A DNA stretch of 24,415 nt from a virus (IMGVR_UViG_3300017978_000358:1-24415); one strand, 5' to 3'. Numbered from the stretch's first letter, positions 1 through 22,239 are shown. Numbers and translations: made by a program. The notes: generated by a model not told the origin, from the sequence alone.

Positions 1-80
1 CGCTGCGCTGCCGTATCTTCGACGCCAAAGCCTACCCCGCCGTCCACAAGGGACTCAGCGGGGTGTGGTTCTTTCGGTAG
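1..80 (+). CDS. 3' end of a small convergent phage protein (partial): ...LRCRIFDAKAYPAVHKGLSGVWFFR*
   Basis: Not in the ORF track. Frame 3 is open from position 3 to TAG at 78-80. The G-x-x-G-V-W-F-F-R end resembles small podophage hypothetical proteins as I recall them. It overlaps the end of the giant gene by 26 bp. Confidence 0.55.
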   Translation, partial: LRCRIFDAKAYPAVHKGLSGVWFFR

Positions 81-3000
81 CCGCGTAGAACTGCAACGCC
101 ATCCGGTTTTGCATGTCTTTGAGCTGCTGAACCCTTGCTTCTTTTTCTTCCCCGGACAGTTTCGGGTTAGCAATGACCTTGCGCTCCATATCAAACAACT
201 CACCCATGCGCTGCCTGAACGCCCCCGCCATCGGTGCACCGACAATCAACGCTGCATTTTCTTTGGCGTACGCAACGGCGCGGTCTTGCTGGCCCCGGTT
301 CACCAAGTCCTTGTATGTCGCCTGTGCCGAGATAACGTCTTCCATGCGACCGTACGCACGTTCGATCAGGAACCTGCCCTCGGAAGGCTGGAACAAACCG
401 CCAATGAACGGCTGGCGTGATGCGCCAACAGGCATCTTCTCGCCTTCCGCTGGATCACGCAGCAGCGGGTTCAGCGTAGACATGAGCGCCACACCAAGAC
501 CGCCGGTATAGCCGCGAACAAAATGCTCAATCATCAGAGGAGAGATGCCGACTTCTCCGGTCACACTGCCCAGAGTCTTGGCCAGCTCGGTTGTGCCCGG
601 ACGGAACCGTGCGCCTGCTTCCAACAGCTTCTCACGCGCCGACTCAATCGGTCCAAAGGTTGTCTCGCCGTAGAAGGCTTCGATAATTGGCTTGGGAGCC
701 GCAGGGACTACGCCCGGTGCAGAGTTCAGCATCAGTTTGCCGATGGCTTTGGCCGCTTCTTTGCCCGTAGCGTTGCCCATGGCAACATCGACAATGGCTT
801 GCGGCAGGCCCATGAAGAGCAAACCCACTTCAAACGGGAACGGGATTTTGAGCGGGTCTTTGACGCCGGGGATGTTTACAAAGAAGTTGCTGTAGCGTTC
901 TTCGGGCGTGGCCTTCTGGTAGTCTTCGTCGTCCTGCATCATGAAGGCGTACGCCAACGAACTTGCAAACAGCATGGCGCCCCGCGCCGCAATCTTGCGC
1001 TGAATCTCCAACTGCTGACTGAACGGCATCTCGCCTTTGATCGAGCGATACAACACGTCCAAGCCCTGAATCTGGGCGTTGAAGAAAGGCACCAGTGTGC
1101 CCATAAGCTGCATGCTGGACGACAAGCCACGGCGACCGAAGTTGGCCGACTCCATGGTGCGGAACTGCGCTTGGGCTTCGGAGAATCCTTTTTTGATTGC
1201 GTCGTTGTAAATTGCCGCACGTGTGGCAGCATCGACCTGCAACGCCATGGTGTCCAGCTTGCCCAAGAATTTGTCCCAACCACCACGCCCTGCGGCTACG
1301 TCGTTCAGGAACTTCTGCATATCGGCTTCGCCGCCGGTGTAGATGTTAGAGCTGACCACAAGACCGCGCATGAGCGCCAGTTCCGCAGGGCTGCGACCTG
1401 CTTGCATTTTGGCCAACTCACGCAAGGCGTTGGCAACCGGCACACCGTCCACGCCCGAGACAATAAAGGCGTTGGCTGGTTCACGTACCAACTGACGCAC
1501 GATATAAGCAGGGCTGCGCGTGATGAACTTGCGCAGGATGTCGGCAGGAATACCCATCATTTTCACGATGGATGGGATGGTGGTCTTGATACCCTCCATA
1601 CCGCGCACAATCAATTCAGCCGGAATGCCGAAAGTATCCGCGTCGATTACTGCAAAGCGGTCTTCGCCGTCGATCTTGTAGTGGACGGTGCTTGGATTGG
1701 CCAGCCCCGCGCCTCTACCCATTTTGGAAACAAACCCCGCTTTATAGAGCGCGTTGGTAGTTTCCATCGTCGCCTTGTTGTGCATGGCCATGCGGGTAAG
1801 CATGAACGTGTTCTGCACGGCGCTGGTCAAGATGGGCTGAATCTTTTTCTCGTCGCCCAAGAACTGCTGGAGGTCCGGGTTGTCTTTGATGTTACCGATG
1901 GTAATCGGGCGCTCGCCCAGCACAAACAGCTTGACGTTGCCGTCTTCCACACGGTAGAAAGGCACGTACGGTTGCTTGTTGAGACGCCGCACTTCGTCCT
2001 TGCTCAAGTACCCAGTCTGTGCAGCAAAGTTCAACAGGCCTTCGTTGTACGTCTTGTACTCACGCATCGCTTCTTCCATGGCCGCTTTGACCTCGGGGTT
2101 GGCGTTCATCTTGTTGACGTACATGTCGTACTCGGCCTTGGCCCCGGCAGGGTCCTTGCCTTGCAGGCGCTCCCAACCGTTGGGCACAGCGTTGGCACGC
2201 TGTCCAGCGATCAGCACGGTCAGCATTGTTTCGGCTTCTTTTGGGTTCATGCCGCCAGCCTTGGCTCCCCGTTCGAGAGCGTTGCTGACTTTCACAAGGT
2301 TTGCTCCGGCCGTAGATTCGTAGCGGTATTCGGTGGCATTACCCACTTTGTCCGCAACGATGCGCACAGGGCCGTCCGTAATAAACTGACCAGCAGCTTG
2401 GGTTACTTTGTCGCCCATGCGCATAAAGTACTGGGCGTTAAACGCCTCAGTAGACGACAGCTTACCTGCGCCCTCTGCTGCCACAATACCTTTTTCGGCA
2501 GCGCCAAGACGGTCGAAGTACTGCACGCGCCCAGCCAAACCAAACAAGTTGCCCTTGAGCGTTGCCAACTTGCCGGGATCACCACCAACAATGGTAGATG
2601 CCGGCGGGGCTTCACGGCGGAAAATGGACGCAACCGCCTGTTTGCCTTGAGTAACATTGGTCGACGGCAAATAAAGTTCTTTAACCAGCGCACTGGCCTG
2701 ATCACTAATTTTTGCAATCGGTGCGTTGCTCCACAGACGCGTCAGCGCATGCCAGAATCGCTTGTACCAAGGTTGCTGGTCTACAGCAGCGCGGAACTCG
2801 ACGTTGGATTGCATCTCCGATACAAACTCTTCCACGTCGCTGATACCGTACTCGGTCTTCAAGTCACGACGCTTTTCAAGCTGTTTGAAAATAGCACTAA
2901 GTTCTCGCTTAGCGTTGCGTTGCTGCGGCGTCAGCTTTTCATCGGGCGTACGCAGTACTTGTATCGTAACGGCGTGAACAGCTTCGTGAATAATGTCTTC

Positions 3001-6000
3001 TTCGGAGATTGCATCGGGGCGCATGACAACCGTGTTTTTTGCCGGTATGAAAAGCGCTGGCACAGGCGTGCCATCCAACGTAATGTCAGTCGACGTAACA
3101 ACTTTGGTGCGCACCAACAAACGACGAATGTCTTCGGCAGTCTCCCGAATCAAAGCGTTGTCACTGTCCACCGCCAAACGCTCAACAGCTTCGGTAAACC
3201 GGCCGTCCAAAATGGCGTCTTTAACCGCTGGGTTTACTTCGGTTCGATTGTAGGTGGAGTACACCATAGCAACATCGAAGCTGCCCTCATCACGGATGCC
3301 ACGCCGCCCGCTCTGCTCGGCACGCTCCAGCTCAACGTCGGCTTCTTCTTTGCCGGGTTTGATAGTGCGTTCAATGGCTTCTTCCGCTTGTTCTTTGGCC
3401 GACTTGTTGGAAGACAAGCCTGCCGCCACGTTTGCTTTGGCGTCTGCAAGGGAGTCAACGGCACGAAACACTGCTTGTTGCGCGTCGTCCACGGCGTCTT
3501 TTGCCAACTCTTTGGCCGCAGGTGTCTTGGCTTCTTTGTAATCCGCTTCAGCTTTTTGCAGCACGGCTTGTGCTGCACGCAAACGCTCGTTAGCTGCAAC
3601 CACCGACGCAGCTCCGGGAACCCGGATGAGGTCGTTACCCTCTTTAATTTTCTCTTTGACCTGCGCATCAGTCATGCCGTCAGTAGCGGCATCAAAAGCT
3701 GCTTGGAGATCGGCCTTGCGCTCCCCGGTAGCGGCGTCCAGTTTTTGTTTCAGCACCGCCAAACTCACCGAGTTGGCATCGGCGCGGTTCATGTCCGAAG
3801 CGGTCAAGCGCACTGCGCCTGCCTGCATTGGGCGGTTTCCCTTGGCAATAGCCTCCCGAGATTCTTCCGTACCAGACAGCATCTGGCTCGGAGGCTGCGT
3901 GCCGACACGAGCAACAGGGCCAACGCGAGTGCGTCCCAGACGAGTACCGGGCGCAACCAGTGGTTCCACACGCTCAGCCGTGCGGTCCTCGGCACCTTCG
4001 CCCACCGGCGTAATAACGCGTTCGCCCAACTGGGTAACGCTTTCGTAATCACGTTCAAGCTGCTTAACAATCGGCGTAAGGCGCTGAACTTCTGCCACGT
4101 TATCTTGGGCCTGCGCTTTATCCAGTTCGGCTTGGCGAAGGTTCAGTGTGTCGCGCACAACCTTGCGCGTCTTAACCACCAACGAAGAGGTAGTGTCGCT
4201 CTCGTAGCGCGTACCGCGCAAACCAAGGCCTTCGCGGATGCGTGCCAACGCAGCGCGTTCAGTAGCGCTGTACCGGAAATCAGCCAATTGATCTTGAGGT
4301 TTCTTGGCCGCTTCTTCCCGTTCCGCAATTTTGGCACCAGCCAGCGCTTGGTTGGCTTTCTTCAAACGGGCGGCAGCTTCGGCGTTTTCCTTTGCTTTGT
4401 CCGCCAACTGCGGTGTCAGCTTTTGGATGTTGGCCACTTCAGTGTCAATCACGGCTTTGATGTCGTTGCCGTAAGCACGGGTAAGGCCCAACTGCTCCAG
4501 TCGCGCTTTCTTGTAGGCAAACTGGTACTGGGCAAGACCTTCGGCTGCCTTGTTGTAGGTGTCCAGCAAAGCGTTGTATGCGCCAAAACCGTAACGACGT
4601 GCCCAGTCAGACATCTTCATTTCGGTTATGTCGCTGACTTCACCCGGTGCGATAGGCAGCAACGAAGATTGGCGCTCAAGCGCCGTGTTAAGTTCGGCCA
4701 GCGTTGCAGTTTTGCTTGCCGAATCTGGGAGCTTTTCTGTTGCGGCAATTTGTTTTTGCGTGCCTTCCAGCATCTCGTCGAGTTTGCGTTTGACGGATGC
4801 AATTTCCAAATCGGCAAACCCAAGTTCCTGTGAAGCATTTAGCGCATTGGAGTTTTTCTCTTTGACCAGTGCGTTAAACGCCGTTGTCCACGCGTCTTGT
4901 TTTTTGCTTTGTTCTTTTTGCAGTTCACGGATCAACGCAGCAGTATCTTGCAGTTGCTGGTCTACAGTAAACGACACCTTCTTTTGTTCTTTCTCGTCAA
5001 AGATAGAACCGCGACGTGCAGTAAACCGGCCCTGTGTGGCCAATAGCTTTTCTCGTTCAGCGTTCAACCGTGCAAGCACGTCCCCAATCGTATTGCCTGC
5101 GGTTGTGGTTTTAAGGGCCGCATACGTTTGGTCCATGTTCTCGACCTGCTGCAATTGCGCAGGCTCCAAACCGCTGGCCAGTAGTTTTTCAATTTCCGTC
5201 TCAACGTCTTTGGCTACGCTATCAGGGTACACCTGTTTCAGCGCAGCATTCATGTTCTCAATGTTCTTGGTAGCGCGAGCAATCTGTTTTTCCAGCGTTT
5301 CCTTTTCCGCTGTCTTGCCTTCTGCTTGTGCTTGAACTTCTTGCTGGTATGCGCGAAGCATGCGTGACGATGCTGCTACTTTGGCAGCAGGCACAGGCTC
5401 AAGCGTTTTCTTGTCAATTTTGGTAATGCCCCAGCTTGACAGTTTCTTGGGCAGCGTCCGTACTTTTCCAGACGGGGTGCGGTAGCCTTCTCCTGCAATC
5501 AAGCGTTCGGCTTCCGCAGTGCCGGGCGTAGCCCCTGCACGTACAGCTTCTTGTTGCTCATAGGCGCGTTGGCGACGCTCAAGGTCGGCAATCTCAGCCC
5601 GAACTTTTTCCTGCTGCTGCAAGTTATCTTGAAGCGCGTTTTCAACCACCTTTGTTTTTTTACCTTTAACAAGGTTGTTGAGGTAGTTGATTTCTTTGCG
5701 CAACGCATCGTTGCGCTCAAGGTCACGCGCAGTAGCCTCAATTCGTTTTGGATAGCGTTGGCTCAAAACGATTGTTTTTTTCAGAGGCCATGTCTTTACG
5801 ATAGGGTCGTTTGACTGCACCAAGAACGCTTCGTGCTCTTCGTTTTTAAGTGCAGCCACATACCGCAAATACCGGGTAGGGTCCGAATCCCCAGACGCCC
5901 GTGCTTTGCGCAAGTCTTCTTCGACGTTTTTCAAAGAGACCAGTCGTTGCTTAGCGTCTTGCATTTTGGCAGGGTCAACCGCCTTCAAGCCAGCGCGTCG

Positions 6001-9000
6001 CTCAAATCCGGGCAGCGTACGGGTGCGGCTGTCTGCTTCTGCTACACGCTCGCGTTCACGTGCTTGCGCAAACTCGTCAAAACGCTCGCTTCTGCGGCCA
6101 GATGCTTCTTGCAGCCGTGCTTCAGTCTCCTCAATCTGCTCTTCAACTTGACGCAGGCGTGGTGTCTCTTTGCTGTATTGCTCAGCCAAGGCTTGGAGTT
6201 GAGGCGTAGCGCCAACTTGCCCACGGCGCTCCATACCTGCGCGAATGTCGTCGCGTTCTTTGTACAGAGCGTCCAGCTCACGCTGAATGCGGTTTGCTTT
6301 GCTGCGTGCTTCTTCCAGACCGCCAAACAAATCGGCAGTACCGGGGGCAGTTTCTTCCGCCTCAAACAAAGGCGTTTGACGTTCGGTCAGATCGGCGTAA
6401 GTCTTTTGGACGTTGTCCAGCTCATCAAGCGTGCTGCCGCGCAGGTCTTTAAGATCGTTGAGTCGCGCCAGTTTTTCTGGATCGGATGGGCGACCGGCCT
6501 TTTGAATCTGGGCGTTGTATTCTGCAAGGCGTGCACGCAGTTCACGGGCGCGGTCTACCAAATCTGCGGCTTGCTCAATCGGAGCAACGCTGGCTTTCTG
6601 GGCAGCGGGCTTAGCCGGTGCTGGGGCGGTAGTGTCTTTTACTTTAAAGCCTTCTTCGTCAAACTGCACGCGACGGCCTTCGCGTTCTCCCGTGGGGATG
6701 TTTGCCGCAAGTTCTTTCTGAGCTTCAACGTCAAACAACGAGGCTTGACCCAGCGCTTGTCTTTTTTGTTGCGTCTGTGCCGCTTTGGCTTCGTCGGCAG
6801 TTTTAGGTCGTGCGCCAGTGGCAAACGGCAACAAGCGGTCAATCAGTTCAGAAACACGAGCGTCGCTGGCTTGCGTAATTTGAGTAGCAGCATCGGGTTC
6901 ACGAACGGCTCTGTCTCGCCCGATTTTTAACTTGCGCTCAACTTGCGCAAGCGTTGCTTCGAGAGTTTCAGTTTCAGTGCGCACCAACTCTAGTGCTTTT
7001 GACGGGCCGTATTTGGAGAGGGTGTTGTACTCTGCCTCAAGGCCCTTGAGTTTGTCCTTGAGTTGGTCGCGCAGCTTTTCACGGTCAGCAACGCGAAATG
7101 CGTTTTCCTTGGCTTCTTTATCGAAAGACGCCCAGTCCTGTTCGTTTTCGCGCACCAGCATGTTGGCACGTGTAGCCAGATTCAGTTTGCCGCCGGGCTG
7201 CACGCGGTAGGGCTGCGCAAATTTCACACGCTCACTGGCCGGTTTGCTGGCTTGGCGCATGATTTCACGCGCTTCGTCCAGTCGGGCTTTACGCAACCCC
7301 ACTTCAAACGCTGTAAGGCCTTTCTCACCCATGCGGAACAAGGCGTCTGTCTCTTTGGCTACGGTTTCACTGCGGCGTTTGGCTTCTTCCCGAGCCGTTG
7401 CAATTTCGTTGGCCAGTTCGTTGTCAGACACGACGCCAGTCCTGAACGGCAGTTCTGTTTGCTTTTCTGCCTCAGCCAGTAGGGGAACCAACTGTCGAAT
7501 GGCGTCAACGTCACCGTTTGCTTTGGCCACATCCATCTTGTCACGCAGGTCGCTTACGGACGGCATCTGCGTGGTGGTTTTTATAAACGGCTGGAACTTC
7601 TGCAACTCTTCGAGCGCGGTTTCCACTCGATTCAAGTTGGCAAGGATGGCCTGTTCTTGCTCGGTGTTTGTTGCATCAACCAGTTGTTGCTGCGTTTTAT
7701 CAATCGTATTTTGCAGTCGAGCTTTAGCCGCTTTGTAAACGTCTGCGTCGGGCACGATTTTTTCTAACGTGCTTTCCAACGCATTAATTTGGTTTTGCAA
7801 TGGCTGTTGCTGCGCAGGCGTCAGGCCTGCTTGTTTCTTTTTCAGGTCGTCAATACGCGCTTTGAGCTGCGTAGCTTGCCCAATATCCGATGTGTCTTCC
7901 GCTGCGTACGTTGGCTCTTTGCCAAAGACTGCTTCGGCGGCTTTCTTTTCTGCTTCTATTTTGCGCAGAAGCGGAGTTGCCTCAACGCGTTCTTGGACCA
8001 GCGCCTCGTACTCAGGAGACGCCCGGAAGTCTTTGAGTTCTTGGACTGCCAGTTTCTTTTGTTCAGAAGCAAACTGTTTGGATGCAGGGTCAGTGCCTTC
8101 TGGTTTGATTTTGGTTTTTTCTTCCAGTTCTTTTTCTTGCTTAACCAAAGCGTCATAGCGCGTTTGCAGATCAGTTAAGTACTCAGGCTTGGTACGCTCT
8201 GCGGCCAGTTGCTGTTTTGCTTCTTCGGCGCGTTGCGCTTCGACTTTGGCCGCTTCCTCAGTCTCAAGACGTTGAGCTTCTCTTGCTTGGGATTTAGCAG
8301 AACCGCGTTCAAACGCACGACCAACAGGAGCCAGTGTGCCGCCCAGTACTGCGCCGCCGATGAAACTCTCAACGTACTCTTTGCGGGCTTCGGGGTCTGC
8401 GATTTGCAAACCTGCTTGCAGTCGCTCAAGCGACTGCTGCACAACTTCAGTAAGACCTTCCCGAGTCATGGCAGTACCGGTCTTTGCTGCATAATCAGCA
8501 ACGGTTCTGCCCAGTGTTTGGGAGGCAATTGCTTTTGCCTGTTCGGTTGTCAGTTTGGAACCAACGGACCCAAACAACTTACCCACACCGGGAAGCAGCG
8601 CCATGGCGGCGGTGTCAATCAAGGCTTGAGGAACGGCTGCGGCAGCAGCTTTACCGAGGCTGGCTTCTTGCAGCGACTTGCCTTCGTCTACCTGACGGGC
8701 AAGGTTGGTTGCCGTAAATTGGCCGGTAGACACGGCCCCTGCGCCCAACAGACCTGCGCCTATGGCAACCGGAGCCGATACTGGCAAACCCAGCGCAGCA
8801 ATACCTGCGGCAGCAGGAGCAACGGCGTAGGGAATGGACCCGCCAAGAAGTTCCCGAACTTTTAGGAACGGCGCTTCTGTGAAGCCTTTTTCGGTGGGAG
8901 TAAAGCGCTCACTGGCTCTTGCCTCTGCGGCTTCGTACTCTTTCTGCGCCTCGGCTTCGCTCTTGATACCCAGTTTGCCCTTGAGCAGTTCGGCCTGTCC

Positions 9001-9189
9001 ACCCAAACGGGTAAAACCAGCAGAAGCTGCTGCTTTCAGGCCGGAGGTGTCTTGCTTGGGTTTGGGCTCCTCTCTGCGACCAAACGCATCGGGGTACAGT
9101 TTGGCGGCTTCTGACAGTGCTGCTCTGGGGTCTTCGCCCTCCTTGAGAGGGAACCACGAACCGTCTGGGAGCTGGACTGACTTTGCCAT
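55..9189 (-). CDS. Giant (3044 aa) internal virion / large polyvalent protein with zincin-like HExxH metallopeptidase and C-terminal LPD38-like domain
   Basis: N-terminal LPDG motif, then a Gly/Ala-rich hydrophobic region (aa ~110-295) and a long A/E/K/Q/R coiled-coil region. HEAVH lies at nt 2974-2988 with a downstream EEFVSE. The C-terminus has NFGRRG, FFNAQIQGLD and DDEDY..ATPEERYSNFFVNIP..IPFPFEVG, as in LPD38-type proteins. It is the last gene of the structural operon. Confidence 0.85.
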   Translation of the reverse strand: MAKSVQLPDGSWFPLKEGEDPRAALSEAAKLYPDAFGRREEPKPKQDTSGLKAAASAGFTRLGGQAELLKGKLGIKSEAEAQKEYEAAEARASERFTPTEKGFTEAPFLKVRELLGGSIPYAVAPAAAGIAALGLPVSAPVAIGAGLLGAGAVSTGQFTATNLARQVDEGKSLQEASLGKAAAAAVPQALIDTAAMALLPGVGKLFGSVGSKLTTEQAKAIASQTLGRTVADYAAKTGTAMTREGLTEVVQQSLERLQAGLQIADPEARKEYVESFIGGAVLGGTLAPVGRAFERGSAKSQAREAQRLETEEAAKVEAQRAEEAKQQLAAERTKPEYLTDLQTRYDALVKQEKELEEKTKIKPEGTDPASKQFASEQKKLAVQELKDFRASPEYEALVQERVEATPLLRKIEAEKKAAEAVFGKEPTYAAEDTSDIGQATQLKARIDDLKKKQAGLTPAQQQPLQNQINALESTLEKIVPDADVYKAAKARLQNTIDKTQQQLVDATNTEQEQAILANLNRVETALEELQKFQPFIKTTTQMPSVSDLRDKMDVAKANGDVDAIRQLVPLLAEAEKQTELPFRTGVVSDNELANEIATAREEAKRRSETVAKETDALFRMGEKGLTAFEVGLRKARLDEAREIMRQASKPASERVKFAQPYRVQPGGKLNLATRANMLVRENEQDWASFDKEAKENAFRVADREKLRDQLKDKLKGLEAEYNTLSKYGPSKALELVRTETETLEATLAQVERKLKIGRDRAVREPDAATQITQASDARVSELIDRLLPFATGARPKTADEAKAAQTQQKRQALGQASLFDVEAQKELAANIPTGEREGRRVQFDEEGFKVKDTTAPAPAKPAAQKASVAPIEQAADLVDRARELRARLAEYNAQIQKAGRPSDPEKLARLNDLKDLRGSTLDELDNVQKTYADLTERQTPLFEAEETAPGTADLFGGLEEARSKANRIQRELDALYKERDDIRAGMERRGQVGATPQLQALAEQYSKETPRLRQVEEQIEETEARLQEASGRRSERFDEFAQARERERVAEADSRTRTLPGFERRAGLKAVDPAKMQDAKQRLVSLKNVEEDLRKARASGDSDPTRYLRYVAALKNEEHEAFLVQSNDPIVKTWPLKKTIVLSQRYPKRIEATARDLERNDALRKEINYLNNLVKGKKTKVVENALQDNLQQQEKVRAEIADLERRQRAYEQQEAVRAGATPGTAEAERLIAGEGYRTPSGKVRTLPKKLSSWGITKIDKKTLEPVPAAKVAASSRMLRAYQQEVQAQAEGKTAEKETLEKQIARATKNIENMNAALKQVYPDSVAKDVETEIEKLLASGLEPAQLQQVENMDQTYAALKTTTAGNTIGDVLARLNAEREKLLATQGRFTARRGSIFDEKEQKKVSFTVDQQLQDTAALIRELQKEQSKKQDAWTTAFNALVKEKNSNALNASQELGFADLEIASVKRKLDEMLEGTQKQIAATEKLPDSASKTATLAELNTALERQSSLLPIAPGEVSDITEMKMSDWARRYGFGAYNALLDTYNKAAEGLAQYQFAYKKARLEQLGLTRAYGNDIKAVIDTEVANIQKLTPQLADKAKENAEAAARLKKANQALAGAKIAEREEAAKKPQDQLADFRYSATERAALARIREGLGLRGTRYESDTTSSLVVKTRKVVRDTLNLRQAELDKAQAQDNVAEVQRLTPIVKQLERDYESVTQLGERVITPVGEGAEDRTAERVEPLVAPGTRLGRTRVGPVARVGTQPPSQMLSGTEESREAIAKGNRPMQAGAVRLTASDMNRADANSVSLAVLKQKLDAATGERKADLQAAFDAATDGMTDAQVKEKIKEGNDLIRVPGAASVVAANERLRAAQAVLQKAEADYKEAKTPAAKELAKDAVDDAQQAVFRAVDSLADAKANVAAGLSSNKSAKEQAEEAIERTIKPGKEEADVELERAEQSGRRGIRDEGSFDVAMVYSTYNRTEVNPAVKDAILDGRFTEAVERLAVDSDNALIRETAEDIRRLLVRTKVVTSTDITLDGTPVPALFIPAKNTVVMRPDAISEEDIIHEAVHAVTIQVLRTPDEKLTPQQRNAKRELSAIFKQLEKRRDLKTEYGISDVEEFVSEMQSNVEFRAAVDQQPWYKRFWHALTRLWSNAPIAKISDQASALVKELYLPSTNVTQGKQAVASIFRREAPPASTIVGGDPGKLATLKGNLFGLAGRVQYFDRLGAAEKGIVAAEGAGKLSSTEAFNAQYFMRMGDKVTQAAGQFITDGPVRIVADKVGNATEYRYESTAGANLVKVSNALERGAKAGGMNPKEAETMLTVLIAGQRANAVPNGWERLQGKDPAGAKAEYDMYVNKMNANPEVKAAMEEAMREYKTYNEGLLNFAAQTGYLSKDEVRRLNKQPYVPFYRVEDGNVKLFVLGERPITIGNIKDNPDLQQFLGDEKKIQPILTSAVQNTFMLTRMAMHNKATMETTNALYKAGFVSKMGRGAGLANPSTVHYKIDGEDRFAVIDADTFGIPAELIVRGMEGIKTTIPSIVKMMGIPADILRKFITRSPAYIVRQLVREPANAFIVSGVDGVPVANALRELAKMQAGRSPAELALMRGLVVSSNIYTGGEADMQKFLNDVAAGRGGWDKFLGKLDTMALQVDAATRAAIYNDAIKKGFSEAQAQFRTMESANFGRRGLSSSMQLMGTLVPFFNAQIQGLDVLYRSIKGEMPFSQQLEIQRKIAARGAMLFASSLAYAFMMQDDEDYQKATPEERYSNFFVNIPGVKDPLKIPFPFEVGLLFMGLPQAIVDVAMGNATGKEAAKAIGKLMLNSAPGVVPAAPKPIIEAFYGETTFGPIESAREKLLEAGARFRPGTTELAKTLGSVTGEVGISPLMIEHFVRGYTGGLGVALMSTLNPLLRDPAEGEKMPVGASRQPFIGGLFQPSEGRFLIERAYGRMEDVISAQATYKDLVNRGQQDRAVAYAKENAALIVGAPMAGAFRQRMGELFDMERKVIANPKLSGEEKEARVQQLKDMQNRMALQFYAATERTTPR

Positions 9190-9252: not shown

Positions 9253-10974
9253 TTAAGGTCTTGCGCGTGTTGGCGCAACGTCTGCTACCTTGGGGCCGTA
9301 CATCAATGAGCTGAACTCGCGTGCACCTTTCAGCAAGTCTTCCATGGTCACAGCAGGCTCGCCCGGCATACGCTTAGCGTTGATGTCAGCCAAAACCTTG
9401 ACGGCTGCCATACCAGACTTGTCTGCCGTGATTTCTTGCAACTTTTTCATGCCCGACTCCAGACGCTCGGCGTCTGTTTTGCCAGTGCCCAGCATCATAG
9501 CGGTGCGGTCTGCGCCGGTAGGCATAGCTGCACGTGCATTTGCACCGCCTTCGCGGATCATGGTATTTCTCAAGTCTGCTGCAATTGTCTTGTCGGTCTT
9601 GAGATCGTCAGCCACAACACCAAAGATTTTGCCCATATTGGCGTTAGAGATTTCCAAATCTTTGGTCGCGCCTTCCAAGAACAACTGCTGACCTTGGATT
9701 CGGGCCGTACGGATAGCGCGGTTTTCTTCTTTGATCTCTTTTTCGTTCATGTCGTCGCGGTTCAGGCGCAACTCATCCAGACGATCACGGGCTTCGGCAA
9801 ACTTGTCCTTGGCGGCGTTGATCTTGTCAATACCTGCGATGTAGCGCTCGCTGCCCACAGCAATCCCTTTACCGATTACGGAGCCAAGGTTACCCGGAGT
9901 GGACATCATGGCAGCACCGGCTTGCAGCAGCGCCAAACCCATGTACTTGTCGCTCAACCCCGCAATACCTTTTTCACGTTCAGCAAGACGAGCCTCTCTA
10001 CCGGCAAACACATCGCCCCGCTCTTTGCGTCTTTTTTCGCCTTCTTCCTTAGTCCCCAGTGCTTCTTGCTCAAGTTGCGAAGCAAGACCAACACGCTGAT
10101 TTCGCAAAGCGCCTTGAGCAAGTTCCGTCTCACGAGTGAACTGTTTCACCAAAGCGTCAAGTCCGCCCGTCTCGGTTTTTGCAACGGGTTCTTTGCGCGT
10201 TGCGCTGGGGTCAGTCAGGTTGCGGCGGGTAGTATCGACTTTGGGGGCTGCATCGGAAGTAAGCAGAGGCTGCGTAGTTGCAGCTACCCCCGGCTTCATA
10301 CGGGGGTCTTCTTGGCGGCGGAAGCCGTCATCCGTGGGGGGAGTTGCCTGTGCAGTTAGCTTGTCGATTGCGCCCGCACGATTACCGGCGGCTTCACGTG
10401 CAGCGCTGATTTGATTGCGTATTGCTTGCGCTTGCTGCGCGTACATTTGGATAGCTTGCTGATCACCTGAAGCTGCGGCAGCGCGTAGCTGAGGCTCAAT
10501 AACCGCCAACTGCTGATTAAGCTGGTTGATTTGCGCGGCTTTTTGCTGGTCCAACTGGTCAAAAATACTCCCGCCAACCTGATACCGCACCACACCGCCA
10601 TCGGCCATCATCACCACAGGCTCGCTGCGTGCGGCAAAGTTAGCATCGTCGTCATACCCGGCGATGCCACCATCAGCCATCTGCTGCATATTTGGCGCAG
10701 CCAAAGTAGCAATACCACGATCTTCCGGCATGGGTTGTGCTCGTGGAGGAGCCATCTGGGCCAGCGCTTGCTCGTTCACTTTGGGCTGGGGCTGCATGCC
10801 CTGCGCCGCCTGCTGGTTCATGTTCAGGCGTTGGCGGTTCTGGCTTTCTTGAAAAACCAAAGGGAAAATGTACGGGTTTGCTTTATGCATCTCACCGTAC
10901 TGCCGCAAGGTCTGTGGGTCCATAAACCGCAAGGTGGCGCTGATGCCGCGTTGGTCGTTTGACATGATTGACAT
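9253..10974 (-). CDS. Internal virion / DNA ejection protein (573 aa)
   Basis: RBS TAAGGA overlaps the upstream stop codon. The protein is helical and Q/A/M-rich, with two MADGG motifs and a hydrophobic patch (MGLALLQAGAAMM..LGSVIGKGIAVG) typical of ejection proteins. It lies between the tail genes and the giant gene. Confidence 0.7.
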   Translation of the reverse strand: MSIMSNDQRGISATLRFMDPQTLRQYGEMHKANPYIFPLVFQESQNRQRLNMNQQAAQGMQPQPKVNEQALAQMAPPRAQPMPEDRGIATLAAPNMQQMADGGIAGYDDDANFAARSEPVVMMADGGVVRYQVGGSIFDQLDQQKAAQINQLNQQLAVIEPQLRAAAASGDQQAIQMYAQQAQAIRNQISAAREAAGNRAGAIDKLTAQATPPTDDGFRRQEDPRMKPGVAATTQPLLTSDAAPKVDTTRRNLTDPSATRKEPVAKTETGGLDALVKQFTRETELAQGALRNQRVGLASQLEQEALGTKEEGEKRRKERGDVFAGREARLAEREKGIAGLSDKYMGLALLQAGAAMMSTPGNLGSVIGKGIAVGSERYIAGIDKINAAKDKFAEARDRLDELRLNRDDMNEKEIKEENRAIRTARIQGQQLFLEGATKDLEISNANMGKIFGVVADDLKTDKTIAADLRNTMIREGGANARAAMPTGADRTAMMLGTGKTDAERLESGMKKLQEITADKSGMAAVKVLADINAKRMPGEPAVTMEDLLKGAREFSSLMYGPKVADVAPTRARP

Positions 10975-10983
10975 GGTTATTCC

Positions 10984-12042
10984 TTACGCCATTCTGGAGA
11001 GAGCCAGCTCGGCCAGACCGGCTGGACGGGGCTTCACAGAGCCGCCTTTTGCGTAGCTGCTCACCATGCCGCCTTCTTTTCTGCCGCCCATCAGGTACGC
11101 ACCGCCCAATGAGGTTGCAGCCCCGAGGAGTTGCGCCCCGGTAGAGGGTGCTGGCTGGTACATGGTCGCCGATGTCTGTGTCAGAGGCAGACCGCGCAGC
11201 ATGTCGGACATGAAGCCCAACTGCTTGTAGGGGTAGTTCTGCGCGTTCAGGTAATCCTGATACTGCGTGTTGAGCATGCCTTGGACTTGCTGTTGCTGCT
11301 GTGCGCCGAACTGGTTTTGCAAGTTGGCTGCGCCCACGTTCTGGGTGTATTGCTGGTTGCCCAACTGGCCCAACGTGTTGGCTCCGGTCAAAGCTGTTTG
11401 CAGACCTTGGATGCCCAGACCCGCGCCAAACTGCCCTTGCTGCGCGTTGAGGTTGGCCGCTGCTTGGTTCGCAGCCTGCTCGGCGTTGAACTGCTGCATG
11501 GCTTGCTGGAATGCGTTTTGGGAACCTGTGGCTTGAATGCCTGCCAGCGTGCGCTGCAAGTCGGCGTTGCCTTGAGCGCGAGAGATGTAGTCTCGTGCGC
11601 CACCAAAAGCGCCTGCGCGGGCCGCTTGGGCTTGCTGAGTTTGTTGGGCGATCTCGGCCTGACGACGGGCTTGCTGGGACTGTACGTCCACCACGTTCTG
11701 CATGTACGGCGACATGTAGCTGGTAGCCGTTCCTTTGTCTGTGAAGGACTGCGCTGCGTAGGGGTTATAGGTGAACTGCGTGTTCAGCGCCCCAAGCCCT
11801 GCTTGTCCAGCCAAAGCTGTTGCATCTTTCAGTTGCGGAGCAGTTTGCAGCAACGCAGCGTTCTCAAACGACTGTTGCTGCAAGGGGGAGAACTGCGCTT
11901 GGCGGTCTCCCATGTACTGCATGTACGGGTTGTACTCAAGGTCAGTCAGGGCAGCGGACTGCCCCAACAAGTTCTCCACATACGGCCGAGCATAGTCGGG
12001 TATGGAGGTTTGTTCCATTCGTTGCGAAATTTGCTCAGCCAT
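10984..12042 (-). CDS. Internal virion / DNA ejection (pilot-like) protein (352 aa)
   Basis: RBS AAGGAG. Q/A/G-rich, with YMSPYMQNVV and AGAFGGAR motifs and a C-terminal Gly-rich hydrophobic segment (GAQLLGAATSLGGAYLMGG). Confidence 0.75.
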   Translation of the reverse strand: MAEQISQRMEQTSIPDYARPYVENLLGQSAALTDLEYNPYMQYMGDRQAQFSPLQQQSFENAALLQTAPQLKDATALAGQAGLGALNTQFTYNPYAAQSFTDKGTATSYMSPYMQNVVDVQSQQARRQAEIAQQTQQAQAARAGAFGGARDYISRAQGNADLQRTLAGIQATGSQNAFQQAMQQFNAEQAANQAAANLNAQQGQFGAGLGIQGLQTALTGANTLGQLGNQQYTQNVGAANLQNQFGAQQQQQVQGMLNTQYQDYLNAQNYPYKQLGFMSDMLRGLPLTQTSATMYQPAPSTGAQLLGAATSLGGAYLMGGRKEGGMVSSYAKGGSVKPRPAGLAELALSRMA

Positions 12043-12053
12043 GTCTTGGCTCC

Positions 12054-14648
12054 TTATGCGGGGAGATATTTGTCAGAACGGGTATTGGCCGCGACGCGGT
12101 TTTTGCCGGTGGTCTTGCCACGGGCTTTTTGAACACGGTCCATCATGGCGTACAGCTTGCGTGCGCCCGCTTCAGCCGAACCTTTGCCCAACGCTTTGAC
12201 TGCTTCGCTTGAAATGACGACCTCGCCATCGGCAATACGCGCTGGCTGTCGCCCACCGATGGTCGCGGGTACGCTGTCAGAAACGCCGTCACCTTTGCCT
12301 CGCACGAGGTTGCCGCCGCCGGAATAACGCCCAAGATTAACAGGCCGTGCGTTTTTGCCCAAGAGTCGTTGCTCCATGGCAAACAGTTTTTGTGCGCCTG
12401 CATTGGTGGACCCGTTGCCAATCTCGGAGGTTATTCTGGCCGGGACAACAAAGGCGTTATCAGGAAGTTCAGCCACGCCGCCCTTAGCCAAAGAACCCAG
12501 ACCGCCGCCAACAGCGTAACCGCCAGCAGCCATGCTCATGAGGCCTCCGTTAGCGGCACCTGATGAGTAAGGGTCAGTCGCAGCAGCGGCAGCGGCAGCG
12601 GCCTCTCTAGCAGCAGTGCCGTCTGCCAGTTTCTTACCCGCAGCAAGGCGTGCGCGTGCTTCCGCGATGGAAATGCCAAGCGCAGCGGCAAGTTGTGCTT
12701 CGGAAATCCGGTTGCTGGACACAAAGTCAAACAAAGCGCTGTCATCGGCAGGGTCTTTGAGTCCTTGCAAACCTTTGATGACTTCAGCCGAAGTCATGCC
12801 CACCATGCGCTCGCCTTTGGTGTTGTACGACATTGGGCGGTAGTTGGGGTTCTCAACATAGACCCGCTTAACGGGGTCGTAAATGTACTTTTGTGCTGGC
12901 CTGCCTTCTGCGGCAGGAACACCTCGCACAGCCTCGCTGTACGGACGCATGATCTCACCCACGCCGGACTTGATGGGGTTAGCGCCCTTACCCATGAGGT
13001 ATTCGTACGCAGCCAGCGAGTCGCCCGTCTGGCGGTTGAAGCGCTGGTTAAACTCTTCCATCGTTGTAGGTGCGGGATTGGCGTATCCCAGACTGCCGCC
13101 GCCTTGCGTGTAGACATCGCGCAGTTGCCCCATACCTGTAAAGCCGCCGGGTGGACGACCGGGGATGTTGGGGAAAGTTGTGATTGTGCCGTTGGGGTTG
13201 ACTACGCTGCTGCCGCCACCGCTCACGCCGCCAGCAAGATTCGACGTGTCTGTAAGGCCGGGAAGAACTGTGGTGGTTTTGACCGGCGGTTTCTTTGTCT
13301 CTTTGAACAGCTCGTCCAGCGTCTTGCCTGTAGCGCGAACAATGTCAGCTTCGTTGTATCCCCAAATATCCATAGCCCGTTCGGCTTCACTCCGTTTGAG
13401 GTCTGGATACTGCCCTAAAAATTGATTGATGTTGGAGCTCAGCCCGGCAAGGCCGCCCAGCGGCGTGCTCGGCACGCCGACATCTGGCTGGAAAGCCGCA
13501 AACTGCGCTGCGTTGGACAGTCCCGAAGCACGCATGGCGTTGGCCACATCTGCTTGGTTGAGCCCGTACGTGCTCATGGCGCTGCTGACATCGGCCGCCG
13601 TAAGGTTGGGGTTTTGATTGAAGAAGTTGCCAACCATGCTGTTGTATGCAGCGGAACCCGCCGCAGGACCAGCCACAGGCGCAGGTGCGCCGGTAATCAA
13701 GCCCGTGTTCGACGCTGCGCTGGACAGCATGTCGGCAGAAATGCCCAAGTTTTTAGCTGCGTTTGCGGCATCGGCAAAAGACAGCGTACCACCGGCCTGC
13801 TGCGCGGCCTCGCGCACCAACTGGTTTACGTAGTCTTGACTGATGGCTGCGGGCATACCGCCGTTGGCAAGCGCCACAATACCGCCTTCGGCCATACCTT
13901 TGTACTCGCTGGCAGGGTAGCTGCCTGCGTCTGAGTATGTTTGGCCGTAAGGGTCAAATGTGAAGTTGCGGATGTAGCCGGTGTCTGGGCGCTTGGTTGT
14001 GGTCTCTACGGTGTCTGCGGCCATCATGGGAGAAGCGGCGGCATAAGCCGCGCCAAGGGCCTTAGTAGTTCCGCCCATACCCGTCATAAACGCTTTTGGA
14101 TCATTGAACGCCGCAGATGCGCCTTCCATGAGCCTGTCACCAACGCCTTTTGCCAAGAAGTCTTTTGTAGCATTGGCAGCGGCTTGGTTGAGAACGCCTT
14201 GCTCGGTCAGCCCTGACGCAACAGCTTGCTGCGCAATCTGGTCTGTCGTAAGTCCGGCCACTGCTGCTTCTTGGGCTGCGCCTGCTCCTGCGCCTGACAA
14301 ACCAGCACCCAGACTTGCGCCGCCGTAAGCGCCCAGACCTGCCATCAGGCCACGAGACAGACTGCCTGTTGACAAAGCAGTAACGCCGCCAACCGCCAAA
14401 CCGGCCATTTGCGCCGACATCAAACCAAAACCCGCAGGGCCAAGTGCGAAGCCTGCAATCATGGGCAGCATCTTCTTTAGGAAGTTAGCTTCTGGCTGGC
14501 CCGTTTCGGGGTTAATTGTGAGTGTGCCGCCATGACGTTCGGCCAGCGCTTGTAGCGCTTGGACTTCGCCGGGGGTCATGTGTACGAGCATCGAATCGCC
14601 GCCGCGACCTTTGGTGGCCATGTGACTGGCAAGTGCGTGAAGGCTCAT
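12054..14648 (-). CDS. Internal virion / ejection protein (864 aa) with internal repeats
   Basis: RBS GAGAGG. N-terminal GRGGDSMLVHMTPGEV...TINPETGQPEA motif, followed by a Gly/Ala-rich hydrophobic block, four small helical repeats and a C-terminal GKGDGVSDSVPATI...GEVVI domain. Confidence 0.7.
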   Translation of the reverse strand: MSLHALASHMATKGRGGDSMLVHMTPGEVQALQALAERHGGTLTINPETGQPEANFLKKMLPMIAGFALGPAGFGLMSAQMAGLAVGGVTALSTGSLSRGLMAGLGAYGGASLGAGLSGAGAGAAQEAAVAGLTTDQIAQQAVASGLTEQGVLNQAAANATKDFLAKGVGDRLMEGASAAFNDPKAFMTGMGGTTKALGAAYAAASPMMAADTVETTTKRPDTGYIRNFTFDPYGQTYSDAGSYPASEYKGMAEGGIVALANGGMPAAISQDYVNQLVREAAQQAGGTLSFADAANAAKNLGISADMLSSAASNTGLITGAPAPVAGPAAGSAAYNSMVGNFFNQNPNLTAADVSSAMSTYGLNQADVANAMRASGLSNAAQFAAFQPDVGVPSTPLGGLAGLSSNINQFLGQYPDLKRSEAERAMDIWGYNEADIVRATGKTLDELFKETKKPPVKTTTVLPGLTDTSNLAGGVSGGGSSVVNPNGTITTFPNIPGRPPGGFTGMGQLRDVYTQGGGSLGYANPAPTTMEEFNQRFNRQTGDSLAAYEYLMGKGANPIKSGVGEIMRPYSEAVRGVPAAEGRPAQKYIYDPVKRVYVENPNYRPMSYNTKGERMVGMTSAEVIKGLQGLKDPADDSALFDFVSSNRISEAQLAAALGISIAEARARLAAGKKLADGTAAREAAAAAAAATDPYSSGAANGGLMSMAAGGYAVGGGLGSLAKGGVAELPDNAFVVPARITSEIGNGSTNAGAQKLFAMEQRLLGKNARPVNLGRYSGGGNLVRGKGDGVSDSVPATIGGRQPARIADGEVVISSEAVKALGKGSAEAGARKLYAMMDRVQKARGKTTGKNRVAANTRSDKYLPA

Positions 14649-19803: not shown

Positions 19804-22239
19804 TCAGCGGGCCAAACTAAACTTTTGTGGAGCAGAGGCAAAGGCTGCGAATATGTAGACGTTGCCATTGCCGTTTACGGCGGCATCAGTGCCACGAACC
19901 TTGAAGCCGTTTGACAAGAAGTCGATACCAATAGCACTGGCATCAACAAACTCAGCGCCAGATGTGTTGGGAGAAAGTTTTGCGTTGACCACGTTGCTAG
20001 GATTGCGTGTTCCGTCCTCCACAATCCAATCCACTGCGCCGCTTGTGTTTTTCACCATCACATACGCTGGCCTAAACCCACAGAACACAAACGGGCCATC
20101 AGCACTGCCATTGCCCGTCCAATTGCCGAACCTGCTGTAACCGGGGACTTCTGCGAAACAGTAGGCGACATAGTTGTTACCACTAGCGTTGTTTGTGCTG
20201 TCGTTCCACAACTCAATCGTTGAGCTATTGCCCGGACCTTGCGCTGCCCCTCCAAACGCGTTTGTTGTGTTGAGCAAAAGAAACGCTCTATTTCCGTAGG
20301 CTGCATTCAAGGCATGACCAAGCACAGCCCAATCAGCAGTGGCACTTCTATTTTTTACAAAATACATTGCCACGTTTCTGCCAAGGCCATGACCGACAGT
20401 TGCCCCCGCTGTTCCATTCCCTGTATAAGTCACCACACTAAACCCAGAGGTCGTGTTTGCGCTCACTGTGCTGGTGATGGAGCCTGCTGTGTTGGTCACA
20501 CCTGCGCCGTTGGCTTTCCAAGCCCAAGCAACGATATTGTCTCCGCTACCGTTTGTTGAGTTGTAGTTCGTTACAGGACCGAGAGAAAACCCGTCAGCAT
20601 CAAAAGACGCCAAGTCATTTCCCGCCGTGATGGTGACTTCTGCGCCTGTAGTGTTAGATGACAGACCAAAACCTCTAGTCATCACCGAGTTAAACAAGGC
20701 GTGCGCCCTTCCAAGGTTTCTTGACTTAAACCACAAGAAGTCTGGCTGGAAGCCAAGGCCGGAGATGGACTGATTAGCGTTATTGCCCGTGTACAGGGAA
20801 ATGTTGAAATACTTCCCCGCCTGAGTCGCTGTCGTTGCCCCAATCGTTGGAGTCGGCAGGTTCTGCGTGTTCAGTGCTTTGAAGCCTGATGGGGCTGTGT
20901 AAGCAAAGGGGCGTTGGCCGAAGTTGATAACTGCGCCTGTTGCACCAGTAGCACCAGAACCATCACCAATGCACGGAGTAAATGTTCCTGCCACCCCAAT
21001 GGTGTGCGTACCTTGCAGTGTGTTATTTTTGTAGAACGCTATTGTTCCGGCGTCCAAGTTCAGAGCCACGCCAATGACGTCCCCTGAGGCCCAAGACGCA
21101 CCCCAGCTAGATGTTGCACTGCCAAAATAAAACAAAGTTCCATCAAGGGAAAAATAGACTACACCGCTTACAGTTCCACTGGCATTGTTAGCTGCACTGG
21201 CGTCAATGATCCCTGTGGTGATTCGAGAAGCACCTGTCGAAACTACCTCCCAATACCACTTTCCATTTGAAACGCCGATTGTTCCTCGAGTGTCAAATGT
21301 TGAGCCTGCATCAGGTGTACTAACTTCCAGATTGCCATTACTCAAGGTGGCTGTACCAGAAGGCACATTTAACACCAGCGGATTTAACGTGCAGTAGTTC
21401 CCCCGCACACTCCCGCCCACACCAGTGTCCACGCCCCAGTTCGTTGGCACATCCACCAGAGAGTCATTACCAGCACCAGCACTTACGCTGAAGTTGTTGG
21501 GCGTCCAGTTGTTGCCGTTGCCTGAGTAGTCCTTGCCCAGAGTCGCAGCAGTGGTGTTGCTGCTGTCTGAGAAGTTGAGGTAGAAGCCGTTTGTGCCGTA
21601 AGACCCTGCGTACCGTGTTGGCCCCCACACACCTGTCTGAGCGTCAAATGCGCCAAACGATGAGGGTGTCAAGGCTTGACCGTCAATGAAGTTCACCTCG
21701 GTCAAATAACAATTTGAATAATAAGGAAACGATGGACTTGGAAAGTCCCATGACGAACCAATTGCGTTGGTGGCTGCGCCACACATAAAGTTATATGTTG
21801 CGTTTTGAGATGGATAGCTTGAACTGGCAAACGCAGTAATTTGGCTTCCATTGATATACAACTTCATCCTGTCTGTTGAAGTTGCTTGAGTTGAATCTAT
21901 TGAGCAAACAATGTGATACCACGCAGAAAAATCCCGAAATACAGCAGACGTTTTTATTTCCGCAGAACTTCCCCCTCCAAACGCCAAGACAATTTGATTG
22001 GACTCAACTCTAATATTGCTTGATGAGCCAGAACTTCCGTTGTAGCAATCAATAATTCTGTATTGATTTGTTGTCGTGCTAGATAGTTTTATCCACAATG
22101 AAATTGTGCATTTTGTTTGACTTGTGCCATTTGTTGAAAATGTGCGATTCAGGTAAGCACTGTCAGCACTGTTAAACCGCAGCGAACGCTGAATCTCGTA
22201 GCCGCCAGATAAAACTTGTGTTGTGTTTGAACTGAACAT
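19804..22239 (-). CDS. Receptor-binding / tail fibre tip protein: LamG (ConA-like) domain, SPRY-like domain and three [YW]TGN repeats (811 aa)
   Basis: LamG motifs SLRFN...TISLWIK...AWYHIVCSID...KLYING. Linker YGTNGFYLNF..LGKDYSGNGNNW. SPRY-like GKWYWEV...GDVIGVALNLDAGTIAFYKN...NFGQRPFAYTAPSGF. Repeats start YTGNNAN, YTGNGTA and WTGNGSA. Confidence 0.8.
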   Translation of the reverse strand: MFSSNTTQVLSGGYEIQRSLRFNSADSAYLNRTFSTNGTSQTKCTISLWIKLSSTTTNQYRIIDCYNGSSGSSSNIRVESNQIVLAFGGGSSAEIKTSAVFRDFSAWYHIVCSIDSTQATSTDRMKLYINGSQITAFASSSYPSQNATYNFMCGAATNAIGSSWDFPSPSFPYYSNCYLTEVNFIDGQALTPSSFGAFDAQTGVWGPTRYAGSYGTNGFYLNFSDSSNTTAATLGKDYSGNGNNWTPNNFSVSAGAGNDSLVDVPTNWGVDTGVGGSVRGNYCTLNPLVLNVPSGTATLSNGNLEVSTPDAGSTFDTRGTIGVSNGKWYWEVVSTGASRITTGIIDASAANNASGTVSGVVYFSLDGTLFYFGSATSSWGASWASGDVIGVALNLDAGTIAFYKNNTLQGTHTIGVAGTFTPCIGDGSGATGATGAVINFGQRPFAYTAPSGFKALNTQNLPTPTIGATTATQAGKYFNISLYTGNNANQSISGLGFQPDFLWFKSRNLGRAHALFNSVMTRGFGLSSNTTGAEVTITAGNDLASFDADGFSLGPVTNYNSTNGSGDNIVAWAWKANGAGVTNTAGSITSTVSANTTSGFSVVTYTGNGTAGATVGHGLGRNVAMYFVKNRSATADWAVLGHALNAAYGNRAFLLLNTTNAFGGAAQGPGNSSTIELWNDSTNNASGNNYVAYCFAEVPGYSRFGNWTGNGSADGPFVFCGFRPAYVMVKNTSGAVDWIVEDGTRNPSNVVNAKLSPNTSGAEFVDASAIGIDFLSNGFKVRGTDAAVNGNGNVYIFAAFASAPQKFSLAR

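Follow-up and report, generated by a model that had tools for sequence, protein, structure and literature searches.

The bacterial sliding clamp (beta-clamp, DnaN) is bound through a short peptide that follows the pattern Q-phi-x-[LM]-[FL] (pentamer) or Q-phi-x-[LM]-x-[FL] (hexamer), in which phi is defined as aliphatic (PMC11139829). According to the same source, position 4 is Leu or Met, position 5 is best filled by Phe and poorly by Trp, position 3 slightly prefers Asp, position 2 is tolerant with Leu as the strongest residue, Gln at position 1 is helpful and dispensable, and the flanks are acidic. Bacterial clients include Pol III alpha (QADMF), Pol III epsilon (QTSMAF), Pol V (QLNLF) and Hda (QLSLPL). 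Mobile elements make use of the clamp as well: Tn3 TnpA and Tn7 TnsE target DnaN (PMC11417375), and MuC of phage Mu binds it via QHDLF and QPDLF, with His and Pro at position 2, while the function of Mor requires DLF and the Mor/MuC family shares the consensus Qx[DE][LM]F (PMC12867686). Phages also encode large proteins with an LPD38 domain. One of these, gp47 of phi24B, is found in virions and is a proposed ejection protein (bioRxiv 10.64898/2026.04.10.717836); another, PTXU04_00025, is critical for infection (bioRxiv 10.1101/2023.09.18.558157). Here we describe a conserved array of clamp-motif-like peptides in an LPD38 protein of 3,044 amino acids (aa), encoded by a viral stretch of 24,415 nucleotides (IMGVR_UViG_3300017978_000358:1-24415; hereafter the window).

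The original prediction comprised six such peptides. Translation confirms the coordinates of all six, on the minus strand and within the open reading frame (ORF) 55-9189. Percentages give residue conservation in 55 close homologues, the query included; more distant relatives were compared by pairwise alignments and flank clusters.

55..9189, minus strand: giant LPD38 protein of 3,044 aa, whose gene closes the ejection/structural module; a probable ejection protein
5890..7572, minus strand: motif-bearing region (aa 540-1100), modelled as long helices strung together by low-confidence loops
7924..7938, minus strand: AEAVF (aa 418-422), decayed site, QGDLF at this place in relative P0129
7444..7461, minus strand: site 1, QTELPF (aa 577-582), hexamer at a helix end; Q 85%, L 98%, F 100%
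6733..6747, minus strand: site 2, QASLF (aa 815-819); Q 93%, S 96%, L 98%, F 100%, next D 100%
6364..6378, minus strand: QTPLF (aa 938-942), fits the pattern; L 33%, F 35%
6325..6339, minus strand: site 3, TADLF (aa 951-955), loop in the model; D 98%, L 100%, F 100%
6004..6024, minus strand: site 4, TRTLPGF (aa 1056-1062), non-canonical QxxLPG[FMVIL] class; LPGF 100%
4999..5013, minus strand: RGSIF (aa 1393-1397), not conserved; I 6%, F 48%

Like the motifs of the bacterial clients, the motifs of the LPD38 family combine Gln at position 1, Leu or Met at position 4 and Phe at position 5 or 6 with a preference for Asp at position 3, acidic flanks and a predicted loop context, and both pentamers and hexamers occur; the Hda hexamer shares Pro at position 5 with QTELPF (PMC11139829). 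Unlike those clients, the giant protein would carry several weakly spelled copies with putative clamp binding, in a probable ejection protein without a recognised DNA enzyme, and its family adds a QxxLPG[FM] class and mostly has Gly, Pro or Thr at position 2. MuC and Mor are phage proteins that use the host clamp through off-consensus motifs, two of them in one protein, with a consensus nearly identical to that of the LPD38 family, in which QPDLF and the DLF core recur. MuC, for which binding is demonstrated, is a small transcription factor inside the cell (PMC12867686); the protein described here has 3,044 aa, belongs to a late module and has no known DNA-binding domain. Tn3 TnpA, Tn7 TnsE, Twort gp168 and G1 gp240 are further mobile-element proteins that engage the host clamp, either finding the fork or shutting replication down; they have single motifs or are small inhibitors, and none is described in these sources as an ejected virion protein with an array (PMC11417375; PMC3594737). 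Our literature search, which had supplements and most subscription papers outside its coverage, found no ejection or polyvalent protein described as carrying clamp motifs, and the word 'clamp' is absent from the main text of both Iyer 2017 (PMC5512222) and the phi24B preprint. This agrees with the earlier remark that no description of such a role is known for ejection proteins; Mu MuC is a phage precedent.

Conservation and structural context of the peptides

Of the proposed array, QTELPF, QASLF, TADLF and the LPGF core of TRTLPGF are conserved. QASLF is the best clamp-motif match of the protein and nearly invariant; relative P0065 has QADMF at this place, identical to Pol III alpha's internal motif (PMC11139829). 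In QTELPF, the spacer residues vary and Pro is conserved in only 59% of the close homologues. More distant relatives carry the pentamers QPQLF, QPDMF or QGDLF there, and the flank cluster of this site holds seven hexamers and 11 pentamers, i.e., a switch between the two known forms of the clamp motif. At the place of TADLF, the DLF core is kept in more distant relatives and Gln appears at position 1 (QGDLF, QQDLF). TRTLPGF is replaced in relatives by QRELPGF, QRSLPGM and QKLLPGF, and at one further site this LPG class is aligned to QGDLF (P0109 versus P0129). The array does not extend to RGSIF, which is rejected as a motif given its lack of conservation, and probably not to QTPLF, which is mostly QTPAY-like in close relatives and has to be regarded as a doubtful or recently gained site. 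Many relatives carry QADLF near residue 424-447. Sites are thus gained, lost and respelled at a steady number of one to four, the pattern that short linear motifs would show. Mimicry of the SSB tail by QTELPF was also considered and rejected, the site being internal and its Pro poorly conserved. Independently, representatives of the family carry QAGL[SPD]L around aa 255-290 (ERLQAGLQI in the window), which fits the hexamer pattern; given its fixed, conserved N-terminal place, it is treated as structural.

An AlphaFold2 model of aa 540-1100 (53 sequences; mean predicted local distance difference test (pLDDT) 67, predicted template modelling score (pTM) 0.23), which is informative for local structure only, is about three-quarters helical, with low pLDDT at most motif sites. 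The five sites within the modelled region lie at helix ends or in loops, in line with their proposed linker position; RGSIF falls beyond this region. These five sites are predicted in inter-helix loops rather than buried in helices, and Phe lies outside helices in 5/5 of them versus 3/10 of the other Phe residues. The description of the region as Phe-poor needs a qualifier: Phe makes up 15/511 residues of aa 560-1070 (2.9%), equal to the whole protein (89/3,044). Complex predictions that paired aa 805-964 with the clamp dimer of E. coli scored 0.28, 0.34 and 0.23 (median 0.28 versus a mark of 0.32), which speaks neither for nor against binding.

Motif counts and spelling across the LPD38 family

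Taken alone, the motif count of the single protein is marginal. Compared with 10,000 local shuffles, QxxLF occurs twice (0.47 expected; P=0.08), QxxLF or QxxLxF three times (0.92 expected; P=0.06) and the strict definition with Gln and an aliphatic residue twice (1.5 expected; P=0.44). Three QxxLF/QxxLxF matches within 362 aa anywhere in the protein have P=0.005. The patterns as originally proposed reach P 0.003 or lower in aa 560-1070, a region that was picked post hoc.

The family carries the stronger signal. With the C-terminal 845 aa as query, 1,075 proteins matched, the best 120 of which were considered, and the best 150 of 6,345 representatives of 50%-identity clusters were taken in addition; 133 of these with at least 1,700 aa were kept and 17 shorter ones dropped. 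At E up to 1e-30 the family counts 1,565 cluster representatives. In the 133 representatives, QxxLF occurs 143 times outside the last 850 aa versus 27.1 expected (maximum 41 in 60 shuffles), spread over 94 proteins, and only seven times versus 21.2 expected inside this conserved C-terminus. Over aa 300-1300, Qxx[LM]F reaches 153 versus 20.5 expected (maximum 29 in 100 shuffles), and 55 proteins carry at least two motifs there versus 1.1 expected. Reversed and Glu-substituted patterns are unenriched, and mis-spaced Q..LF patterns are enriched 1.4-1.6-fold. Among 204 dereplicated other ORFs from the same loci (of 636, mechanically called), QxxLF shows no excess (12 versus 11.7), as opposed to 38 versus 9.2 in the 45 dereplicated giant proteins (of 71) of these loci. 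The stricter Qx[SDE][LM]F gives 6 versus 2.4 in the control ORFs, to which a split giant gene and a single upstream gene contribute part. The comparison of homologues with shuffles that was originally suggested thus turns out strongly in favour of QxxLF and not of the hexamer, for which a family-wide enrichment is rejected (20 versus 19.8). The 170 sites fall into 100 flank-similarity clusters, including 77 singletons, among which convergent gain and retention with diverged flanks are not separable.

Chance matches, which are to be expected in a protein of some 3,000 aa and would agree with the whole-protein P of just 0.06-0.08, account for RGSIF and perhaps QTPLF. As an explanation of the array they are extremely improbable in view of the 153 versus 20.5 matches in relatives, the invariant Leu and Phe at three sites and the control ORFs without excess; for sites 1-4 as a class, chance is refuted by the family enrichment together with site conservation. 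The motif array is real and selected, and its sequence resembles that of clamp-binding motifs. In one relative (L035:3699-6101, plus strand), the ejection gene upstream encodes a longer product of 800 aa with QGELF and QMSLF, as though the segment with the motifs had shifted one gene up.

Spelling was tallied over aa 300-1300 of the same representatives. At positions 4-5, QxxLF (130 versus 17.5) and QxxMF (23 versus 3.5) are enriched, and QxxIF (6 versus 7.5), QxxVF (9 versus 10.4), QxxLW (0 versus 2.5) and QxxLY (6 versus 15.7) are not. Before [LM]F, Gln is enriched 5.1-fold at position 1, followed by Thr (2.1-fold) as the second residue; at position 3, Asp is enriched 7-fold and Ser 3.5-fold family-wide. 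The flanks are rich in Pro and Gly and acidic downstream (Asp/Glu fraction 0.229 versus 0.157). The QxxLPG[FMVIL] class is found 27 times versus 0.4 expected, and the strongest spelling, QLDLF, is rare, QL[SD]LF having four sites in the family. In the giant protein itself, Gln at position 1 is present at aa 577, 815 and 938 and absent at 951, 1056 and 1393; Leu or Met at position 4 with Phe or Leu at position 5 or 6 is present at aa 577, 815, 938 and 951 and absent at 1056 (LPGF) and 1393. Overall, the family spelling is a close match to the rules of the clamp pocket except for position 2 and the absent LL form. A non-aliphatic position 2 would be expected to lower affinity more than motif likeness.

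Candidate partner and proposed role

Concerning the partner, PF00712 has no match in 56 records (that of the window, five close relatives of which two are complete, and 50 more of which nine are at least 90% complete), and PF02768 has none in the latter 50. Likewise, no clamp family was found among 49 selected ORFs, a search that a very divergent clamp could escape. A family A polymerase is encoded in four of five records, and relatives also encode an SNF2 helicase, a primase-helicase and an exonuclease. The motif was not found in the polymerase, helicase, primase-helicase and exonuclease ORFs of records G001-G003, of which the G001 polymerase ORF is called from an internal ATG (573/661 open codons). 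Because the relatives searched encode no recognisable clamp and the phage replication proteins lack the motif, host DnaN is the likely partner, and the spelling of the motifs suggests that the giant protein probably binds it. A phage-private clamp and tag system, comparable to T4 gp45 or a phage DnaN, finds no support in the records searched, with no clamp match and replication proteins without the tag. Beside the primase-helicase in record G002 lies a 64-aa ORF (L021:17762-17956, minus strand) whose C-terminal residues, QLELPL, are a textbook hexamer clamp motif; it has no Pfam or PHROG match, and the 52-aa ORF that takes this slot in G003 is without the motif.

The domain content of relatives offers a hint on the location of the motif zone. 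FtsK-gamma, a cytoplasmic DNA-binding fold, is present in 4/133 relatives within aa 405-713 according to a profile built here (P0172 405-475, P0173 643-713, P0174 604-673, P0200 492-562), above the Pfam cut-off in three of them. This suggests that the zone may be a cytoplasmic, DNA-facing region. In P0173, QPELF lies at the N-terminal edge of the FtsK-gamma domain. Mutual exclusion of FtsK-gamma and the motif is unsupported, as two of the four proteins have both (P=0.24).

We tentatively propose that the giant protein is a weak, multivalent tether of the ejection site and the incoming genome to the DNA-loaded beta-clamp of the host, a reading that is plausible and still short of probable. The protein would be packaged in the virion and then ejected into the host, as its gene position and LPD38 relatives suggest. 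Its N-terminal hydrophobic segment would anchor it in the inner membrane, leaving aa 300-1950 in the cytoplasm, where the three conserved clamp-type peptides and the one variant, placed in loops predicted along an extended helical arm, would serve as hooks. Each hook would be weak, and several may jointly hold one clamp ring or neighbouring rings. What the phage would gain, as a best guess, is a position at the nucleoid or the fork, as for Tn3 TnpA and Tn7 TnsE; positioning is preferred over processivity because the close relatives have their own family A polymerase, which is without the motif. A virion holds few copies of such a protein compared to a host clamp pool of hundreds per cell. Since the spellings are weak and the virion copies few relative to this pool, an avidity tether is favoured over titration at entry. 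Of the two roles originally envisaged, tethering fits better than sequestration right after entry, position 2 being mostly Gly or Pro and not the high-affinity Leu. In a broader form, which we consider rather doubtful, a widespread family of podophage ejection proteins would act as a cytoplasmic grappling arm. After crossing the membrane, its evolvable array of pentamers, hexamers and QxxLPG[FM] peptides as a new clamp motif, or a captured FtsK-gamma domain that grips DNA in some lineages, would couple entry to the replicating host chromosome before phage expression.

If the tether exists, a virion protein engages the hub of the host replisome at entry, and clamp use by phages extends beyond MuC and inhibitors. 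A clamp array would name a host target for the extended central regions of giant ejection (polyvalent) proteins, whose function is largely unassigned, and the QxxLPG[FM] class would widen the definition of the clamp motif.

A number of observations weigh against the tether. Regarding spelling, QxxLL is unenriched (71 versus 75) and so are hexamers family-wide, though both are allowed forms. Gly and Pro are enriched 4-fold at position 2 and Leu stays at background, while the review defines this position as aliphatic. In the giant protein, only QASLF (Ala) has an aliphatic residue there, with Thr at aa 577 and 938; TADLF and TRTLPGF, the best-conserved cores besides QASLF, lack Gln here and have it in relatives. 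QxxLPG[FM] lies outside the motif definition given in PMC11139829. The representatives are related, so that the counts overstate independent events. A FastTree phylogeny of 134 proteins, built from the C-terminal 800 aa and rooted at the midpoint, contains a motif-poor clade of 32 relatives, with 21/32 proteins without motif versus 11/102 elsewhere, a count in which some N-terminally truncated proteins shift the counting window; this clade includes three of the four FtsK-gamma proteins. Eight distant cultured LPD38 giants (PTXU04_00025 and seven others) have two sites versus about three expected and no array. Four syntenic phages have two matches in 13 ejection-slot proteins; no cultured phage with a motif array was found among these eight giants and four phages. 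The array is likely dispensable for the ejection role, since both the motif-poor clade and the eight cultured giants do without it. It should be noted that the C-terminus of the cultured relatives is just 23-27% identical to that of the 3,044-aa protein (23% for PTXU04_00025). As to location, a weak YkuD match below cut-off in one relative leaves a periplasmic placement open, and the LPD38 protein of phi24B is proposed as a transperiplasmic conduit (bioRxiv 10.64898/2026.04.10.717836); a periplasmic arm would have no reach to the clamp. Finally, host assignment failed, with the closest three of eight contig matches (35-37%) in metagenome-assembled genomes of Burkholderiaceae, Actinomycetota and Saccharibacteria, perhaps mis-binned.

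The same motif evidence would also suit competitive inhibitors of DnaN. In this reading, the giant protein itself or a piece cut off by its candidate HExxH peptidase would block the pocket and stall or deregulate host replication. This could happen at entry or when the protein is made in bulk late, with the phage copied by its own family A polymerase. Lytic phages do target DnaN for shut-off (Twort gp168, G1 gp240; PMC3594737), and overexpression of MuC is lethal via its motifs (PMC12867686). Complete relatives encode PolA, a helicase and a primase-helicase, so the host replisome would not be needed. Nevertheless, the weak spellings (Gly, Pro or Thr at position 2) and the rarity of the strongest form, QLDLF, are not what an inhibitor calls for, few virion copies would face many clamps, and a small early protein would cost less, which makes inhibition an unlikely role. 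A purely structural role is, in our judgement, also unlikely. Here, Leu-Phe pairs at helix ends would act as latches that pack onto helices or subunits and fold the arm in the capsid or in the ejected oligomer. All modelled sites indeed lie at helix boundaries, Gly or Pro comes next at several of them, as is usual for caps, and the surrounding helices are well conserved in the close clade too. Packing, however, needs no Gln three residues upstream, where Gln is enriched 5-fold and Thr 2-fold, and it does not predict that Met is accepted and Ile or Val is not, nor the switching between pentamer and hexamer. The many flank clusters, a whole clade that does without the sites and the mostly low pLDDT also speak against latches.

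Alternatively, the peptides may form a docking, packaging or cleavage tag that is read by a divergent phage hub, a phage peptidase or another host protein. Many G001 ORFs are without a family, so a divergent clamp could be missed, and the LPG variant lies outside the known clamp definition. Yet the other ejection-module and replication proteins are without the tag, no clamp-family match occurs in the relatives searched, and the spelling closely tracks bacterial clamp rules; we therefore consider such a tag improbable. A shared packaging tag is rejected, as the neighbouring ejection genes are without the motif. Compared to these explanations, the weak tether to the host clamp remains our preferred reading.

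Gene neighbourhood and further features of the window

The window, a fragment of 24.4 kb (38% complete), covers part of the structural module of a podophage, encoded on the minus strand. Besides the motif sites, the following features were annotated.

430..930, minus strand: LPD38 domain (aa 2754-2920), PF18857, E=2.2e-28, 100 bits versus a cut-off of 27
2974..2988, minus strand: HEAVH (aa 2068-2072), HExxH zincin-type motif, candidate metallopeptidase by motif only
8731..8835, minus strand: hydrophobic segment rich in Ala and Gly (aa 119-153), a candidate for a membrane anchor from a Kyte-Doolittle scan
9253..10974, minus strand: 573-aa gene, probable second ejection protein by position only, family search empty; no clamp-like motif
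10984..12042, minus strand: DNA ejection protein, 352 aa, phrog_4287, E=1.5e-11; no clamp-like motif

Farther upstream of the ejection genes lie an 864-aa gene and a phrog_3287 structural protein; matches of the latter from cultured phages bear the annotation stabilisation or needle-head protein. In the DSL-LC04 phage, the gene that ends this module is called a 'DNA transfer protein', and its slot matches that of the 3,044-aa protein. Based on this gene position and on LPD38 relatives including phi24B gp47, the giant protein is probably packaged and ejected. Its family matches are LPD38 and phrog_18222; LPD38 is the sole Pfam match, and no second Pfam domain, enzymatic ones included, was found in the protein. 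With an LPD-type domain in a very large protein among late/virion genes, it resembles the phage large polyvalent proteins (PMC5512222), with which it shares its size, the C-terminal position of LPD38, HExxH and the late-gene context. Other hydrophobic segments occur near aa 181 and near 2786. HExxH is present in the corresponding stretch of 62/133 representatives; the HEAVH region has no Pfam, NCBIfam or named Atlas match, an Atlas search with aa 1975-2200 returning only unnamed clusters and an LPD23 minority label. The Atlas search with aa 540-1100 gave nothing usable. A domain scan of 54 relatives added FtsK-gamma in four and LPD23 in one. For the C-terminal model (aa 2200-3044; pTM 0.60), Foldseek found no match at E<=0.001, and the best Z in fold searches was 8.0, to generic helical bundles.

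The 864-aa protein (12054-14648, minus strand) is rich in Gly and Ala and carries a recurring G-G motif (MAEGGIV, MAAGGYA, LAKGGVA). The same motif is seen in the 573-aa and 352-aa neighbours (MADGGIA, YAKGGSV) and may be a shared packaging or assembly signal. An 811-aa tail-associated protein (19804-22239, minus strand) comprises DUF7483, SPRY and an N-terminal lectin-type fold. It also has a weak Pfam label for a Clostridium neurotoxin receptor-binding domain (E=1e-5), probably reflecting a shared fold, and its best match is a virion structural family. At its other end (55-420), the window stops at a junction seen in complete relatives, where the giant gene converges on an opposite-strand replication module and a 62-aa ORF overlaps the end of the giant gene.

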